From positions 58,962,001-59,026,000 of the forward strand of contig CM069135.1 of assembly GCA_035221665.1 (NCBI GenBank): 64,000 nt of DNA. The letters are read 5' to 3'. Of the stretch, positions 10,593-58,459 are shown one piece after another (within the stretch, counting starts at the first letter, position 1; the number at the start of each line of letters is the position of its first letter). The position numbers were made by a program, and so were the translations under genes. Under the pieces are notes generated by a model that ran no database searches, was not told the DNA's origin, and worked only from the letters and a program-made list of their open reading frames with translations. Source of the DNA: Okamejei kenojei. Taxonomy: Eukaryota.

Positions 10593-12199
10593 ATGCACAG
10601 AAAATGTAGTTCTGTTGCTTTGATTGTACAGTTGCCTTATATTGCCATCTAGTGAAATGCTGGGCTCCTGATTTATTAAAATCAACTTTCACAATAGGAC
10701 TATTTTATGCATGATCATTGATTTCAAAAGCTATCCTTTGCAACCCATGAACTGTCACCAATACACATTTCAGAATATCACTCTACAATGGTTCCAATTT
10801 CTTCAAAATTACGACTAAATATTGATATAAAATTAATCCATCTCGACTGTGGAAAAGCTATTCAGTAGCAGCTTGTCATCTAATCAGTAGATACAAAGCG
10901 AATTATACCTGAAAGATCCTTTTTACTGGGATCATAAAATTATATCTATACCAGGTATAAAAATGGGGACATTTTCAAACAAAATTTATAATCACAAGAT
11001 GGAATTTAACTTTAAAGTGGGGCCTTTATAGTATTTTTACAAAACAAGCTGGATAAATAGAGATAGAAAATGCTGAAAATACTCAACTGGTCAGACAGCA
11101 TCTGTGGATTAAAGAACCTTCAATTAACAAAAAAACATCAAATTGTTCCGTGATTCTATTTTTCTTGTAGAAGCACAACCTTCATATCCATATCTCTATA
11201 CTTATAAAACTATGATCTTGGATGTGTGTGTGTGTGTGCGTGCTTGCGTGTGTAAGTTATTAATGAAAATGTTCAAAAATCTGACAAAACTTTGAATTTA
11301 AAAATGACTCTTTTGCTGATGACGTCACAATGGGTCTGCATGTCTTCTTCCTCGTGCATCACCTCCCCCCCCCCCCCCCCGTTATTCAAAAGACGCGGCC
11401 GTAGATGAAATCGCGCCTGGACTGAAGACCAAAGATCATAGCTGAAGACTGCGGCGGCTCAACTCACAGTTCTTTGGTCGATGCTCGCTCGCTCGCCCCC
11501 TTGCTCGGGGTCCTCGTGTCGGCGCATGGTGGGGAGTTTGCTGCCGCTCTCTGCCTATCGCTTCCCTCTCGCTGCACTCCGCCTCTTCCTCTGTCCTTGC
11601 CCTCTGCCCTGCCCTCTGTCTGCTGCCCCTATCCTGTGCCTCTGCCCTTTGGCCCCTGCCTCTACCTGTTGCTTCTGTCCGCTACCTCTGTCCTCTGGCC
11701 CTGCCTCTTTTCCTGCCCTCTGTCCTCTGCGTGCCTCTGCCCTCACTCTCTCTACCCCCCTTCCTCTCCCTCTCTAGCCGCGCCTGCGAGCTGGGGCTAT
11801 GCGTGAGTAGATAGGATGGGGGATGGGGTAAAAGGAGCGAATTAATAATATTAATATATCAAGGGAGGTGGTTATTGTGGTAAATGGCCACCCCCCCCCC
11901 CCCCCCCCGGATCTTGGATGTATATTTATTTGTGAGTGTGTGCGTTTGTTTGTGTGTAATCACATCTTCTCGAAAAAGCGACGTGCTAATAGTAAAAAAA
12001 TTACATATTCTGGCAGAGATTTATGCTGTGAAGTCAAAAATTGCCTTATCTGAAAAATTCACGCTTTATTTCTCGAATTATTAATGAAAATGTCCAAAAA
12101 TCTGAAAAAAACGTCGAGAAATCGCTGATGATGGGTTTGCGCAATGTGTTCCGCACGCTGCGAGTGATGAACGAGCTCTCGGGGCGGGTCCGTCTCGGG

Positions 12200-12930
12200 T
12201 CCCTCTCCCCCCTCCTCCTCCTCTACCCCCCCCCCCTCTCCCACCCCCTGCTCTCCCCCTCCTCCTCCTCTCTCCTCCCCTCTCTCCCCGGCATCTCTTC
12301 TCTCTCCCCTTCTATCCCCCTCCTCCACCTCCCCCTCTTCCTCTCCCCCATCCTCCCTCCCCCCACTCCTCCCCTCTCCCACTCCCCCCTCTCCCCCCCT
12401 CCTCCTCTCTCCCCCCCAATCCCCTTCCCCTCCGGCCTCTCTCCTCTCCCCTCTCTCTCTCCCCTCTCACCCCCCTCTCTCTCCCCCCTCTCCTCTCCCC
12501 ACCACTCTCCTCTCCCCTACCCTTCTCCCCTCGCCTCTCCCCTCTCCCCCTCTCTCACCCCCCTCTCTCTCCCCCCTCCTCTCCTCTCCCTGCCACTCTC
12601 CTCTCTCCCCCCTCCTCTCCTCTCCCCTACCCTTCTCTCCCCTCACCTCTCCCCTCTCCGCCCCTCTGCCCCCATCTCTCACCCCCCCTGCCCCCCCCTC
12701 CTCTCCCCCCACTTCCCTCCCTCCACTTCTCTCCCCCCCTCCTCTCTTCTCTCCCCCGTCCTCTCCCCCCCACCTCTCTACCCCCCCTCTCCACCGCCCC
12801 ACCCTCTCTCCCCCCCGAGCCCCTCCCTCTGCCTCTGCCCCTCTCTCTCTGTCTCTGCCCCCTCTATCTGCCCTCTCTCTCTGTCTCTGCCCCCTCTATC
12901 TGCCTCTCTCTCTACCCCCCCTCCCTCTCT
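12200..12930 (+). repeat. Low-complexity C/T-rich tract
   Basis: About 730 bp almost entirely pyrimidine. Confidence 0.95.
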
Positions 12931-12944
12931 AGACGTGCCTGTGA

Positions 12945-13745
12945 GTTGTGTGGTGGGAGGGGAGGTGTGTATGTGAGCGGGAGGGGGGTGAGGAGGGATG
13001 TGGGGAACGGGGGGTGTGTGGGGGAGGGGGCGTGTGGGTGGGGTGGGGTGTGGGGGGGGAGGATGTGGGAGGGGGGGGCGGTTTGGGGAGGGGTGTGTGT
13101 GGGCGGGGGGTGTGTGTGGGCGGGGGGTGGAAAAGAATGTGTGGGCGAGGGGTTTGTGGGCAGGGGGTTATGGGCAGGCAGTTGTGGGCAGGGGGTGGTT
13201 GTGGGCAGGGGGTGTTGTGGAGGGGTTTGTTGGTTGGGGATGGGTGTGTGGGGGGGAGGGGGGAGGGTTGCGGGGGGGAGGAGAGGTTTGTGTGGGGGAG
13301 GGGAGAAAGGGGGTTGCAAGGGAGAAGGGGGTTAGTGGGGAGAGGGGGGTGAGGGGGTGGTTGTGGGGGAGAGGGGGGATTGTGGGGGAGAGGGGGGTTG
13401 TGGGGGAGAGGGGGGTTGTGGGCCTGAGGGGGTGTGTGGACGGGGGGTTGTGGGGAGAGGGGTGTGTGGGCAGGCAGTGTGGCGTTGTGGGGGGGGCGTT
13501 GTGGGAGGGACGCTGTTGGGGTTCGCTGGCGGGGGGGTGTTGAGGGAGGGGGGTTTGTGGGAGAGGGATGGGTTGTGGGAGGGAGGGCTGTGTGGGAGAG
13601 GGGCGTGTGGGAGGGGGGTTGTGGGGAGGGGTGTGTGTGGGGGAGAGGTGTGGGGGAGAGGTGTGGGGGGAGGGGTGGTAGGGGAGAGGTGTGTGGGGGG
13701 GGCGTTGTTGGGGGGAGTGGTGTGTGGGGGCAGGGGGGATGAGAG
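12945..13745 (+). repeat. Low-complexity G-rich tract
   Basis: About 800 bp of G runs (gggggttgtggggagag-like units). Confidence 0.95.
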
Positions 13746-14640
13746 CTCGTAGAAAAGATGGGGAAGAGCCATGGGGAAGGGGACCAGAGGAGAAGGGGTT
13801 GGAGGTGCGATGGGGACTCACAGCGGGCGCTGGATGCTTCGCTGGTCGTTCTCCTCCGCCGGGATAGGAGTCTCCGCTTTCCGTTTCGCAACATCAGTGC
13901 CCTCTCCGTCTCCGCGTTGGGTGAGGTCGGGCTGGGTCGGGCCATTTCCGATCCCTCCCTCCAAAAATTGTGTCCAGTTGGAGACCTCTGTCAACAATCC
14001 AGAGCCTCCCGCAGCTGCAGTAAAGACGCGATGGCGCAGGAAGAGGCGGACCGTCTCGCTGAGTGACAATAGGAGGGGCCAATCCGCGTGGTGCTGAATG
14101 GCAGGAGAGGCAATCGATCTGCGCACGTGCGGTTTTTAAGATTTTTTTAACCTCGATAACTCGTACCAGCTTCCATCGATCGGAACAAAACTCGGTGCAA
14201 TCGCAGCACAGGAGAATGGTGAGAAAGCTGGCGAAAAATCATAGCGCAAATAAAATGACCGCCAAACCGGAAGATAACAAGATCAGAGTTTTAGTTATGT
14301 ATAGATAGATATAATTTCAAGGGGGGCTCCAATGGTTAATGTGTGTATGTGTGTGTAACTTAGGGGGTGGTTAGTGTGTGTGTGAATGACCACATCTGGT
14401 CGCTTCCCCCCCCTTTCCTCCCCACAACTGTACATTGAAGGGATTCAGGGACCCAACGGGATTACATTCTTTTTTTAATCATCAATCTACACAATCCCAC
14501 AAAGTAATTTGGTCACATAGTACCCATTAAAACTTTGATCTTGGATGTATGTGTGTGTGTGTTTGTTTGTTCATGTGTATGTTTGTTCATGTTTTGTGTT
14601 TGTTCGTGCATAATCACATCTTCTCAGGAAAAAAACGATA

Positions 14641-50501: not shown

Positions 50502-50618
50502 TAACAAGCACGTATTGTAAAAAACAAAGGTCCTTTAAAATCAATGCCAAAGTGCAACGTTCAAAAACTGGTAATCGTTCTCGGCATGTGAGAAAGGAAC
50601 CTCCTTCGTATCCAGCAG
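50502..50618 (+). CDS. ZNF512: ZNF512 coding exon 6 (..RHVRKEPPSYPA)
   Basis: ttacag|..CAG|gtatga; RKEPP.Y.AG motif of ZNF512; phase 1-1. Confidence 0.88.
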
Positions 50619-51284
50619 GTATGAGGTAAATGCTGCTGTGTTGAAATTGACATAGTTGCAGGACTTTCTCTTGTACTTTTAGATTGCCTTTAGGACCTTA
50701 TATTAAAAAGTTTTGGAAGATGGGCTGGGAAGTACTCTAATAATGACAAGGCGACAGATTTGATCATTCTGTATTGGATAAACAAATGCAAAATGTTTTT
50801 CAGCGGGAATGACCTGTTTTCCAATTAGTAATATATATTTTTGTCACTAGTATTATTTGATCCGCAGAATCCTGACAAATCAAAAAACATCTATCAATGT
50901 ATCTATCCATATATTAAAACTCTGTGTGTGGGTGTATGTCACATTCCATTTTTTTTTCAGATAAGATTTTTGGCCTTTGATTTCATGGTTCGCCGAAACC
51001 AGACCCTCAAATGCTGCACTTTTTCCATTTTGCTAGACATTACATTTTTATATTCACTAATGCACTCCTCATTACATTTAGACATTTTTATGTACATATT
51101 TTTAAATAAAATTACCTCCCCCCCCCCCCCCCCCCCCCCGCCCCCAAATCTTCAAAATGTTTAAAAAAAAAATCAAACAGCTCTCACCCATAGAATGTTG
51201 GTGAACGTTCCATTGTGTGATGTCACAATGCCCAATGCTCACAGATGTCCAATCGGAATGGATCTCATTTACATGCCTTTGCCC

Positions 51285-52722
51285 CAGCCCCAGCCCCCCC
51301 TCCCACTCTACCCGCCACATTCTTTCCCCTCTCTCTCACCCCCCACCCCTCCCACCACACTCTTCCCCCTTCCTCCCTACCCCATCTCCCTCCCCATCCT
51401 TCCCCCTACCCCTTCCCCATCCCTCTCGCCTCCCCTTCTCCATCCCTCTCTCCTCCCCATCCCTCCTCCCCCTCTCCATCTCCCTCCTCACCCCTCTCCC
51501 TCTCCCCCTTCCTCCTCCCACCCCATCCCTCTCTCCCCCTCACCCATCCCCGCTCTCTTACCCATCCCTCACCACCTCTTCCCCCTCTCCCCCACACTCT
51601 TCCTCCCTCTCTCCCCTACCCCATCTCCCTCCACCCCTCCCACCCCCCTCCCCCATACCTCTCTCTCCCCCTCCCCCTCACCTCCCCTCCCCCACCCCTC
51701 TTTCATCTCCCTCTCCCCCTCCTCCTCCCACCCCATCCCCTCCCCCCCTTCCCTCTATCCCCCTCCCCTTCCCCCTCTCTCCCCGCCCCCTTCCACCTAC
51801 CCCTTTGTCCCTCTTCCATCACTCCCCCTACACCTCTCCCCCTCCCACCACTCTTCCACTTTTCTCCCCTTCCCCACCTTCTCTCTCTCCCCCCACCCCT
51901 TTTTCCCTACCCCTCCTTCCACTTCCACCACTCCCCCTACCCCTCTCTCCTCTCCTCTCCTCCACTTTTTCCACCCCCCCTTCTCTCCCCCACCCTTCTC
52001 TCCCCACCCTCTCTCCTCCCCCCCATCTCTCTCCCTCCCTCCCTCTCCCCATCCCTTTTCCCTACCCCTCTCCCTCCTCTCTTCACTCCCCCCTCCCCTC
52101 CCCTCTCCCACTTCACCACTCCTCCCTTCCCCTCCCTCACTCTTCTCTCCCACCCCTCCCTCTCCTCCTCCACTCCCCACTCTTCCCTACCTCTCCTCCG
52201 CTCTCCTCCCTCCCCCCCCTTTCCCCCTCCCCTCCCCCCCTACCACTCTCCCCCTCCCTACACACTCTCTTCCCCACTCTCTCCCTATCCCCCTCTCCCC
52301 CTCTCCCTCCCGTCCCCTCCTCTCCCCTTCCCCACACCCCTCTCCTCTCTCCCCCTCTCCCCCACCCCTCTCTCACCCCCTCCCCACTCCTTCCCCTCCC
52401 CACCTCTCTCCCTCTCCTTTCTCACTCCTCTACCCCCTCCCTCCTCCTCTCTCGCCTCCTTTCTCCCCCGCCCCTCTCCTTCACCTCCTCCCCCTTACCC
52501 TCCCTGCCCTCTCCCCATCCTCATCTCCGTCTCTCCTCTCTCCCCCTCCCTCTCCTCCCCTTCCCCACTCTCTCCCCATCCCCCCTCCCCACTCTCTCCC
52601 CATCTCCCCTCCCCCTCCCCACTCTCTCCCCATCTCCCTCTCCCCAGCCTCACCCACCCATCCTCCCCTCCACCCCCCTCTCCCTCTATTGCCCTTCTGT
52701 CTCTGCCCCTCTCTCTGTCTCT
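51285..52722 (+). repeat. Polypyrimidine (C/T) tract, about 1.4 kb
   Basis: Almost G-free C-run sequence. Confidence 0.95.
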
Positions 52723-53154
52723 CTGTGTGTGTGTGTCGGCGGTGTGTGTATGTCACATTCCATTTTGTTTTTCAGATAAGATTTTTGCCCTTTGAATCCA
52801 TGGTCCACCAAAACCAGATGCTCAAACGCCGCCTTTTTTTTCCATTTTGCTAGACATTACACTTTTACATTCACTAATGCACTCCTCATTACATTAGGCA
52901 TTGTAAATAAGATCCTTCCCCCCGCCGCCCCCCCCCCCCCCCAATATTTCAAAATGTTAAAAAAAATCAAACTGCTCTCACCCATAGAATGTTGGTGAAC
53001 GTTCCATTGTGTGATGTCACAATGCCCAATCGGAATGGATCTCATTTACATCTGCCTTTGCTCCAGCCCCACCCCCCGCAGCCTGTTTTGAAGCGCGTGA
53101 CCACATGCGTGGGGATAGAGAAAGGGGATTGGGGAGTGGGGAATAGATGGACTG

Positions 53155-54408
53155 CCCCTCCCCCTCCCACTCTACCCCCCACTCTTTCCCCTCTCTCCCC
53201 CCCCATCCCTCTCCCTCCTCCCCCTCACCCTCCCTCTCTACCACTTCCACCACTCCCCCTACCCCTCTCCCCTCCCTTCCCCACTCTCCACTTCTCTCCC
53301 CCTTCCCCCCACCCTCCCTCCCCACACTCTCTCCCTCCCCCACCCTCTCTCCCCCCCCTCCCTCCCTATCTCCCCCCTTTTCCCCTACCCCTCTCTTCCT
53401 CTTCCAACACCACCACTCCCCCCTCCCCTCCCTCTCCACTTCAACTACTCCCCCCCTACACTCTCCCCCTCCTCCCACTCTTCCACTTCTCTCTCCCCAT
53501 CCCTCACCCTCCCCATCTCCCTCTCCCTCCCCACTCTTCCCCCTCTCTCCGCTCTCCCCCTCCCTCCCCACTCTTCCCCCCCTCCCCCTACCACTCTCCT
53601 CCCTACCTCCACACTCTTCCTTCTCTCTCCCCTACCCCTTACCCCCTCCCTCCACACTCTTCCCCCCCTCTCTCACCCCACCCCCTCATGCTCCCCTTCC
53701 CCCCCTCTCTCCCCATCTCCATCCCTCCCCTCCCACCCCCCCCGCTCGCGCCCCCCTCACTCCCTCTTCACCCCCATCCCCCCCCCCTCTCTTGCACCAC
53801 TCCCTGCGCATACCCATCTCCCCCTCACTCCTCACTCTTCCCCTCCCCCGTCCCCGCTCCCCGCACTCTAGCACCTCTCTCCCTCCCCTTTCTCTCCCAT
53901 CCTCTCTGTCCCCCTCCTCTTTCTCCCCTTTCCTCTCTCCCCCTCCCCCCTCCACTCTCCTCCCTCTCCCCTTCCCCTCTTCCTCCCCCTCTTTCCTCGT
54001 CCTTTCGTCCCTTCTTCTCCCCCACACCTCGCCTCTCCTCCACTCACCTCCCCCTCGGTCCCCTCCCCTCCCCTTTACCCCCACCCCTCTCTAACCCTCC
54101 TCACCCACCCCTTCCCCTCTACCATCCCCCTTCCCCTACCCCTGTCTACCCTCCCGCTCTCCTCCCCTTTTTCCCATCCCCCTCCCCTCACCTCCCCCTC
54201 CCCCATCTATATCACTCTCATCCCCATCTTCCCCCCCCTCCCCACTCTCTAACCCCATCTCCCGCTCTCCCTCTCCCTCTCACCACCCATCCTCTCCTCC
54301 TCCCCTCCACCCCACTCTCCCTCTGTTTCTTGCCCTTCTGCCTCTGCCCCTCTTTCTCTGTCTCTCCCCACTCTCTGCCCTCACTCTCTAACCCCCCCCC
54401 CCCCCCCC
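53155..54408 (+). repeat. Polypyrimidine (C/T) tract, about 1.25 kb
   Basis: Almost G-free C-run sequence. Confidence 0.95.
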
Positions 54409-55615
54409 AGACGCGCCTGTGAGTTGGGGGATATGCGTCAGTGGATAGGGCGGTTATGGGGTAAAATGAGCAAATTAATAATATTAATATAATATCAAGG
54501 AGGGTAGTTAGCGTGTGTGTGGGGTGGTAGTTAGTGTGTGTGATGCCACATGCTGCCCTACCCCCGCAACCGCACGTTGGGGAAACAGACCCAACGGGTC
54601 TGCACTTGGTCTAGTATACTTTTAAAACTCTGGGTGTGTTTGTGTGTGTTATGTCTGTCAGATGTTTGCCCTTTGATTCCATGGTCCGCCAAAACCACAT
54701 GCTCAAACTCCGAAATTATTTCCATTTCGCTAGACATTGCACTTTTACATTCACTAATGCACTCCTCATTACATTTAGACATTTTTATGTACACATTTTT
54801 AATAAATTTCCCCCCCCCCCCCCCCCCCCCCCCCAATATTTCAAAATGTTAAAATCAAACAGCTCTCACCCATAGAATGTTGTGAATATTCCATTGTGTG
54901 ATGTCACAATGCCCAATGCTCACAGATGTCTAATCTCGCAGACGTCGACATGCCTGCGAGTTGGGGGCTATACGTCAGTGGCTAGGGTGGTTATGGGGTA
55001 AAAGGATCTAATTAATAATATTAATATCAAGGGGGTAGTTAGTGTGCGTGACGTAGCATCCCCCCCCCCCCCCCCCCCCCCCCCCGCAAACGCGCTTTGG
55101 GGGAACAGACCCAATGGGTCTGTACTTGGTCTAGTATACATTTAAAACTCTGTGTGTGTGTGGGTGTACGGCATTTTGCCTTTGATTCGTTACTCCGAGA
55201 AAACCAGATGCAAAAACGCCGAGATTTGTACCATTTCGCTAGTGATTTAACTTTTACATTCGCATATCCACTCATTAAATTTGGTCCTTTTTCTGTACAC
55301 ATTTTCAATAAAACACTTACTGTTTTCTTTAAATCAGCAGCTGCGTACGTCACAATGCCCTTGAGCTCGCTGCACCGCCACCCGCTCTCAATTGAAGCAG
55401 ACGCTGTTATCGCACTTTCAATCCCTCCCGCCCACTCAGTCCTGGACTAATTGTTCAACATTAACATTTATTTTCAAAGAGCCGCTGCCCAGCTGCAGAC
55501 GTCACAATGCCCTTGCGCTCGCCGCCACTCCTCCCGCAGCTGGACTCCCACGCCCGCCCGCTCACTCCAACCCCCACCCCTCCCCCGTTCTCAAAACGCA
55601 GGTTACAGCCGGTTA

Positions 55616-55838
55616 TTTAGTTTTCAGCTTCTGGCTACAAATGGCAACAAACCAATCAAAGGTGAAAGTAACGGTGAACCAGACAGAACAGTCTGTAGCT
55701 GCGTACCTCAGTACATCGATAACACTGCACACAGGGGTGATGGACAGGAAACTCAAATAAAAGTAATGATATCGGAGATGATACAAAATGACCTCGGTGA
55801 TGGGGACCAGTAGATCGGCCACTGCCATGGCCACCAGG
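55616..55838 (-). pseudogene. Class A GPCR fragment (TM2-TM3), GPR139/GPR142-like
   Basis: LVAMAVADLLV..TEVIL..SFLSITPVCSVI.VL.YAATDCSVWFTVTFTFDWFVAICSQKLKTK: TM2 AxADL, TM3 Cys and a D(R>W)FVAIC motif. Confidence 0.85.
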
Positions 55839-56734
55839 CTCGACTTTCAGCTAAATATCAGGAGTGTTGGAGTCGGTGCACGGCCTCTGCAAGTTTAACA
55901 ATGTCAGAGCTGACTCCAACTGTACCCGACCGACCTGCTTTAAGGGAGAAGAGATAAGGCCACAGGCGGGCGTGGTAAAGGCCGGGATGTGAGGGAATGA
56001 GCAGCCACCCGCTACAATAGGCGCAATGGTCATTCCTATAGTGAACCCAGCTGCTGCTCACAGTCTCTGATGGGACCGCTTTCACAGATTTAACAGTGAG
56101 CGGCCCCCGCGTTTAACCAGGGCTCTGGGAACTCGGCATCCGAGTCTGGTTTTCTCGGAGTAACGAATCAACCCCTCCTCTCCCCCCCCCTCCACTCCCC
56201 CATTCCCCCCCTCTCTCCCCCCGTCTCTACCCCTCCTCTCTCCCCCACTCCTCTCCCCCCCACCTCTCCCCCCCCCTCCCCTCACCCCCACCTCTCCCCT
56301 CCTCCTCTACCACCCTCTTCTCTCTTGAATATAAAGCTTGAATATAATTTAAAGTTCCCAGAGCTCATATTATCACTTGCAATTGGACCAACTAATACTT
56401 TTGTGGTTTGAGCGCGTGAACCTACTAATTTACTTGGGAGATATCAGAATATTTTTGTGAAAATGTAATTATAAAATAAGCTTATATCATTTAAAACTCC
56501 CAGAGCTCATATTATCAACTAATACTTTTGTGGTTTTTAAAACTATTTGGATATGAGCGCTCATACCTCTATCCTAAGAATTTAGATTTTATAATAGTGT
56601 AAATATGATTAAGAAGGAAGGGAACTTAAAATATATTATACTGCACCTGAAGTTGATTTTAATTTTAAATATGAAATTTCCATGTTTTATCTTACTCAAA
56701 TAACAAATTTTATATGATTGGATTTAATTGGCAG

Positions 56735-56859
56735 GAAGTCAGGAGGAACACTGGTATCTGGAAATTCTGGAAAGGGGCAAGATTACGTGCCCAACATGTA
56801 AGGCTGTTATGAGGAAGACTGTGGAAGGGCTGAAAAAACATATGGCAAACTGCAAAGAG
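56735..56859 (+). CDS. ZNF512: ZNF512 coding exon 7 ([42 protein letters not shown])
   Basis: C2HC finger; strong similarity to ZNF512 GSLEEQWYLEI..CPTC..RKTIEGLKKHMENC as I recall it. Confidence 0.93.
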
Positions 56860-58009: not shown

Positions 58010-58459
58010 GTAAGAGTTACAATCTAAGATGAACTCTCTTTGTTTTGACAACACCGCTCAGAACTAGAAGGCTTTCCTATTAATTTTTCTCTGAAATCAA
58101 ATTGTATTTGAGGGTTATGTTATGTTGCTGGACGTTCAGAAGGGCACATCGTCAAACTACCTTAGTTCATATTCTGGATGTTGATCTGTTGGCAGGTGAT
58201 TCATTTAAAACCTTTAATGCAAAGAAACAACAGCCTTTGAAAATGTGTGCAATTTTGCCAAATATGTAATTTTTGGCTAAACTGCGAGGCACAGTTGGGG
58301 AGGGTTGCCATGACTCACGTCACAACGGGAAACTGTCAGCCACGTCTGCGCAGTTAGGGGCTATGGGTGAGTGGTGGAATATTGTGTTGGGGGAACGGGT
58401 TGCGTTGGAACGGGTCAATGGTGCAATATTGTGTTGGGGGAGTGGGACTGCTGCAAAAA

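Follow-up and report, generated by a model that had tools for sequence, protein, structure and literature searches.

The window, by which we mean the whole stretch of 64,000 nucleotides of Okamejei kenojei that was analyzed (assembly GCA_035221665.1, contig CM069135.1, positions 58,962,001 to 59,026,000), contains a 225-nt fragment of a GPR139-like receptor gene as one module of a patchwork. The patchwork probably arose in a one-off repair (single or very low-copy) within a non-autonomous Helitron1 copy that resides in an intron of ZNF512. Its modules follow one another as Helitron head, 17-nt filler, receptor piece, 304-nt piece of an abundant repeat, 6-nt fold-back, inverted copy of the element's own head and C tract. 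The limits of the modules, the parents of three of them, the features of the junctions, the missing 3' end of the element and the disabling changes are observed; that one repair event accounts for all joints, that the patchwork exists as a single copy and that it lacks a function is what we infer. The observation is real, and what it represents is most likely an ordinary scar, an aged repair patchwork in a dead transposon. Neither templated repair scars nor the association of a gene scrap with a vertebrate Helitron is new in kind.

The receptor fragment and its family

The receptor fragment occupies positions 55614 to 55838 on the minus strand and, judged from its sequence and its relatives, runs from TM2 over ECL1 and TM3 to the start of ICL2. 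A first-pass annotation had described an abruptly ending, stop-free antisense TM2-TM3 segment of about 74 codons, which is borne out by the translation, the relatives, the limits of the HSPs and the contigs. The frame of 74 codons without a stop indeed lies at 55616-55837, although the start given as 55838 is one base out of frame. The Pfam 7tm_1 profile is matched over positions 23-89 of 260 with an E-value of 0.0019, which is below the curated cut-off, and among the solved structures human GPR139 is the best match (E=0.0033). In the protein search 737 of the 768 longer candidates matched the fragment with E<=0.001. The ends are abrupt: when 120 listed receptors were compared by tblastn, 101 of the 125 HSPs at this place covered exactly 55616-55837, and the relatives read on with TTRY before and YCT[G/E]K after the fragment. 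The fragment comprises 74 of around 325 receptor residues and has no start, and of the characteristics of a functional class A GPCR it shows neither the seven helices nor an intact D/E-R-Y/F motif. When short proteins broken at the same place were sought, one candidate came up, which was judged to be an unrelated paralogue fragment, and scans of metagenome and viral contigs for receptor relatives were empty.

The proposed strong expansion of the family in sharks, rays and skates is supported by the names of the relatives, as 116 of the 120 listed carry a chondrichthyan name (the other four are unnamed) and most are labelled 'probable G-protein coupled receptor 139'. The closest among them is a 'putative GPR139' of Rhinoraja longicauda (86% identity, 64/74). 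In a tree of the matching stretches with 36 rows, made up of the fragment and 35 of the 120 relatives chosen by taxon, the fragment came out near Rhinoraja paralogues, a weak grouping with an unstarred support of 83/80. The donor is identifiable as GPR139-like, an assignment at the level of the family and not of one gene. The resemblance of the family to human GPR139 is remote (43 bits, E=2e-10 for the full-length member P0006), so 'GPR139' should be taken as a best-hit label. Hundreds of 'probable GPR139' receptors are found in elasmobranchs, an expansion that seems little described in searchable papers and may merit a study of its own. A literature search, with supplements, subscription papers and repeat databases outside its scope, listed no paper on the expansion of the family or on skate Helitron cargo, and term searches in the main text of PMC10620051, PMC10115646, PMC8455134 and 10.1101/2025.06.08.657570 found no account of either there.

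Several positions indicate that the fragment is decaying. The arginine of the DRF motif is replaced by tryptophan (DWF), a residue present in none of the 120 relatives, 118 of which have the arginine; position 12, within TM2, is a proline, likewise found in none; and a conserved cysteine is replaced by serine, which occurs in one. At six sites the letter of the window is contradicted by no less than 82% of the depth in each of the sequencing runs aligned (see below); these are six of the 19 rows that the listing, with 40 of 197 rows, contains for the fragment. Four of these are replacements and two are silent, a ratio that is compatible with neutral drift, on very few sites. Among the pieces listed, the smallest differences to the window are 2/144 (Helitron head, run X6) and 5/184 (repeat), which makes the patchwork neither very recent nor ancient. 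The suggestion that the fragment contributed to the expansion of the family is unsupported: less than a quarter of the receptor is represented, with disabling changes, and a fragment that is about quarter-length, promoterless and motif-broken cannot add to the intact receptor set.

The Helitron array and its host gene

The surroundings of the fragment are Helitron-derived, as had been proposed, with Helitron1-like ends and heads on the plus strand. Unit 1 (50902-54614) has a TC head, a head-like restart at 52742, long C/T tracts, a hairpin at 54585-54603 and a CTAG end. Unit 2 (54615-55134) is a short, non-autonomous element of 520 nt with a head without TC and with a hairpin and CTAG at 55131-55134. 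Unit 3 (55135-55598) consists of a head and internal sequence and belongs to another subfamily (75% identity to unit 2 over 392 columns); it contains an internal direct repeat of 48 nt (55338-55385 and 55490-55537), and listed pieces of its family reach 142/144 identity in run X6. The array starts as A|TC at 50901/50902, and its two 3' ends (54611-54614 and 55131-55134) consist of a hairpin and CTAG before a T, all of which is typical of Helitron1. The hairpin of unit 2 has a predicted energy of -7.7 kcal/mol, which was equalled in 4 of 200 shuffles. After the CTAG-T at 55135 the contigs split into unlike flanks (36 in run X5, with an agreement of 0.44, and 9 in X6), pointing to dispersed copies with precise ends, as expected of a dispersed element. 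A RepHel gene was not seen, and the Helitron end pattern had no matches in viral and metagenome contigs.

Further heads start directly after each CTAG end, and the units join as CTAG|TATAC without a TC start (54611-54630 and 55131-55150). This arrangement fits repeated insertion of Helitrons at the A|T within each other's TCTA-TA heads, which would yield head-to-tail nesting and not rolling-circle concatemers. The 5' edge of the array (50890-50909, plus strand) shows five TCTA-like tetramers, which would then be what remains of such insertions into 5' ends, again at the A|T. Among the titles returned by the literature search nothing was obviously about such nesting. Related Helitron-like elements form another cluster at 11170-14330, which has one head per strand and long tracts of C and of G, and a subterminal block in common with 54373-54510 (78%).

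The fragment had been placed behind the third Helitron head and before its C tract, and this position is correct, but it does not lie between two termini. The C-rich tract (56172-56324, plus strand) ends abruptly and is not followed by a hairpin with CTAG; no such structure was found for unit 3 between 55140 and 57900, and the next CTAG, at 58064, is located beyond two ZNF512 exons. Unit 3 is thus without a 3' terminus and its 5' TC is detached by two upstream units, whereas captured fragments are defined by their location between both termini of one element. Just past the truncated unit there is an imperfect local duplication (56334-56409 and 56478-56536, 74%), which holds a short Helitron-head-like word.

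The location in a ZNF512 intron and the antisense orientation were also correctly predicted. An exon at 56735-56859, around 410 nt past the truncated unit, matches PDB 2CTD (56737-56859) with E=3.7e-18 and another at 57926-58009 matches the Pfam domain ZNF512_zf-C2H2 with E=4.9e-14; the presumed upstream exon around 50504-50620 had no match. Because both matching exons are on the plus strand, the fragment is antisense to ZNF512 and inside its intron. Provided that this intron is transcribed, the ZNF512 pre-mRNA must contain the 225 nt in antisense. A stable or small antisense RNA from the fragment is not supported, and no evidence for a regulatory role was found. Silencing of donor genes by captured fragments is described in a review on plants (PMC13317346) and serves here as a lead only.

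Modules and junctions of the insert

A word search of sequencing runs listed 23 runs, 20 of which contain a part of the patchwork; none contains half of its words and the best share is 0.32. No RNA run was among the holders, which says nothing on expression. From these 23, four public runs (X1, X5, X6 and X9) were chosen, and their contigs were aligned at 85% likeness to 55090-56171, a stretch that excludes flanks and C tracts. Out of 883 loose-end rows, 46 joints and 8,890 pieces, the statements below cover the 24, 15 and 32 that were listed, respectively.

Every module reads on into its own parent in other contigs. At the left limit of the receptor piece, 55614, receptor contigs depart from the window into receptor coding sequence (11 in X5, 2 in X6), and they do the same at 55838 (10, 1 and 15 in X1, X6 and X9, respectively). 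Downstream of the receptor piece, the GC-rich sequence at 55840-56165, formerly called unexplained, resolves into a 304-nt internal piece of an abundant, CpG-rich repeat (55837-56140, delimited by the loose ends of contigs) and a 27-nt inverted copy of the head of unit 3. Repeat contigs leave the window at 55837 (9, 9 and 19 in X1, X5 and X9) and at 56140 (25, 22 and 22), in both cases into the repeat's own sequence. None of the 32 of 8,890 pieces listed bridges 55614, 55838 or 56140. Contigs can attest presence only. At position 55941 the letter of the window is absent from all aligned depth in the four runs, and none of the four covers the last bin (56163-56171), so these runs probably lack the locus and the absence of bridging pieces tells nothing about copy number. 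The ratios of receptor to head depth and repeat to head depth vary together across the four runs, where depth is not to be equated with copy number.

The repeat piece has 15 CpG in 304 nt. The repeat is very abundant, is present in all four runs (from two organisms according to the run codes) and occurs with 3-nt indel variants. As to its identity, nothing was found in Pfam, Rfam, ESM Atlas, viral contigs or the protein search (0 of 36 candidates), and none of the 40 other rows listed (of 71) from the tblastn with the 120 receptors falls on it. Its one HMMER match, to a bacterial-type repeat protein, was judged spurious. A frame on the plus strand, in which three of six stops fall on letters private to the window, was dropped because other copies keep two stops (loose end at 56107). 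One X9 contig (depth 61) passes from unit-3-like sequence at 55572 over 34 letters to the repeat at 55944, skipping the receptor piece altogether. The shorter side of this joint is 21 letters long, a class that is often unreliable, and the 34 letters match 55584-55598 with two mismatches. Going by this contig, the repeat may travel with this Helitron family elsewhere, as an internal part or as earlier cargo. The 10-mer that opens the continuation of the repeat past 56140 is also found exactly inside the receptor piece, at 55798-55807, where it is the window-private change at 55803 that renders the match exact, with 0.19 matches expected in the whole window; it is either due to chance or the trace of a pairing between two templates.

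All three joints show marks of the kind left by repair, namely filler, a 2-nt overlap and a fold-back. The left junction consists of 17 nt (55597-55613) in receptor-derived patches, as counted by eye against a loose end in X5. Words of 5-7 nt, taken exactly from the 30 nt with which the receptor family reads on, cover 14 of the 17 nt (P=0.0017 against shuffled sequence, in a test that was chosen after looking and that used the family consensus instead of the true donor). Either synthesis stuttered on a template here or the receptor patch is longer and carries small indels. The receptor and repeat pieces share two nucleotides (GG) at their join. The right junction holds a perfect 6-bp fold-back (56131-56145, with the arms 56131-56136 and 56140-56145), of a kind found at 30 of 3000 shuffled positions (1%). 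Next to it, at 56145-56171 on the minus strand, lies the exact inverted copy of 27 nt from the head of unit 3 (55182-55208). Compared with five further stretches of the window that are heads or Helitron-like, this copy matches over 9 nt at most and, as it fits the head of this unit only, the template must have been this element or its direct parent. Neither a poly(A) nor a target-site duplication was found at the fragment (the longest shared words are 2-7 nt, C-rich or due to chance).

Origin of the patchwork and comparison with known systems

Considering the way in which all modules read on into their parents and the repair-type marks at every joint, we favor the explanation that a break in a Helitron1 copy was repaired by template switching. 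Synthesis on the plus strand would have left the Helitron around 55598, stuttered, and copied around 225 nt of a GPR139-like gene; it would then have switched over the 2-nt overlap to the abundant repeat, of which 304 nt were copied, and, following the 6-nt fold-back, have copied 27 nt of the element's own head in reverse before rejoining the C tract. The 3' end of the element would have been lost during the repair or later, and the receptor piece would have decayed after the insertion. The enzymes involved may have been those of Pol theta/SD-MMEJ or of an MMBIR-like process. The SD-MMEJ account includes snap-back inverted repeats and complex insertions made of overlapping nearby copies (PMC2943611). 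A family of this size makes a large target, which would explain why a receptor piece was taken, and, since both foreign templates are abundant, no special targeting would be needed. Against this explanation, the frame is still stop-free across 74 codons, the X9 contig hints at a link between the repeat and the Helitron family elsewhere, and the same scars would be inherited by all copies if the patchwork had arisen in a parent element that then transposed, with a later loss of the 3' end.

The filler-DNA model as summarized in PMC6544945, with repair of internal breaks and short homologies at the joints, would make such an event the first step of Helitron capture, amplification being a second step that was not seen. 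Of the capture proposed by the first-pass annotation, the acquisition is hence compatible with the junctions, but a spread by Helitrons is unsupported, with the 3' terminus missing and the TC detached. Mobilisation from this site seems unlikely, given that the left end is essential for transposition of Helraiser (according to PMC4778049), that the TC of unit 3 is detached and that two terminators separate the piece from the intact head of the array.

The possibility that the patchwork is true Helitron cargo, formed in a parent element and then transposed, so that the window would hold a 3'-truncated member of a subfamily with head, receptor and repeat, is the best of the alternatives but rather doubtful. 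It would account for the position of the fragment directly behind a Helitron head, and there are precedents in Xenopus laevis, whose Helitrons multiply coding fragments (19 fragments in 64 insertions, as reported in PMC12001565), and in moths, with stepwise acquisition followed by amplification (as outlined in PMC6544945). The single X9 contig that joins unit-3-like sequence to the same repeat can be read in this way too, but its joint is without the receptor piece. In X1, up to 17% of the depth at 55803 differs from the family letter, so that copies with the letter of the window could be among it. The absence of a 3' terminus in unit 3 argues against cargo, and so does the orientation, which is opposite to that of the Helitron while captured fragments are mostly co-oriented (as reported in PMC12001565). 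An extended version, in which a skate Helitron subfamily took the GPR139-like piece by template switching and was copied to many introns, where host-driven antisense could act on the family, must be considered a long shot.

It is equally improbable that the receptor and repeat transcripts were reverse-copied into the resident Helitron, either by the LINE machinery or during break repair. The fragment does fall within one coding stretch, LINEs are abundant in the window (reverse-transcriptase-like matches) and dominate the repeat content of the little skate (as stated in PMC10115646), and for other species a capture into Helitrons with the aid of LINEs is mentioned (in PMC12001565). Set against this, a poly(A) and a target-site duplication are absent and both ends are internal, while DNA templates are indicated by the fold-back and by the local head that was copied in inverse orientation. 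An assembly chimera, stitched from reads of different repeats beside long C tracts, is very improbable: kilobase low-complexity tracts flank the region and every module is highly repetitive, but mis-joins by overlap need long shared sequence whereas these joints share 2-7 nt and bear templated scars, and each module has private changes, as in an aged insertion. A processed retrocopy is ruled out by the lack of a poly(A) and a target-site duplication. Helentrons or Helitron2 elements (HINE, DINE-1) are characterized by family-wide subterminal inverted repeats, insertion into TT and the lack of a CTRR end; this class is ruled out by the CTAG ends of the family and by the 27-nt inverted repeat, which is confined to unit 3.

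With the repair patchwork as the preferred reading, the locus is of modest value, as a worked example of how filler-DNA capture might start in a vertebrate Helitron, with junction marks that can still be read. It would matter more if the same joints occurred at many loci, as neither Helitron cargo in cartilaginous fishes nor the expanded GPR139-like family is discussed in the papers that the literature search reached. In the case of an amplified subfamily, the window would keep the scars of the capture event and provide a direct vertebrate example of the filler-DNA route, and there would be dispersed receptor pseudo-fragments, from which host-driven antisense could act on a large, unstudied receptor family.

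The likeness to known systems is partial in each case. Like the Helitron1 elements of the Helraiser/Helibat1 type, the array has a 5' TC after A, CTAG before T and a hairpin around 11-12 nt from the end (features as given in PMC4778049), but no RepHel was seen and unit 3 is without a 3' end; units 2 and 3 start without TC, so that the array differs from a plain CTAG|TC concatemer. The elasmobranch 'probable GPR139' family is matched with 86% identity, by a fragment that is short, has no start and has a broken DRF motif. SD-MMEJ/polymerase theta insertions likewise combine a snap-back inverted repeat with overlapping short local copies at the junctions (as described in PMC2943611). Such insertions are short and local, whereas the patches found here measure 225 and 304 nt and come from distant loci. 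Patches of this size would need longer synthesis, of an MMBIR- or SDSA-like kind. With the Helitrons of Xenopus laevis (Heli1Xen1), bats and maize the patchwork has in common a partial coding fragment of around 200 nt, associated with a vertebrate Helitron1. The fragments in those elements are enclosed by both termini, and they are often present in multiple copies and in the orientation of the Helitron (according to PMC12001565); none of these three features is seen here. Finally, the Sfru_Hel1A series, an example of the filler-DNA model (as presented in PMC6544945), likewise contains foreign DNA from multiple sources within the element and short homologies at the joints, but its derived forms are amplified families, while the patchwork described here is known from one, truncated locus.
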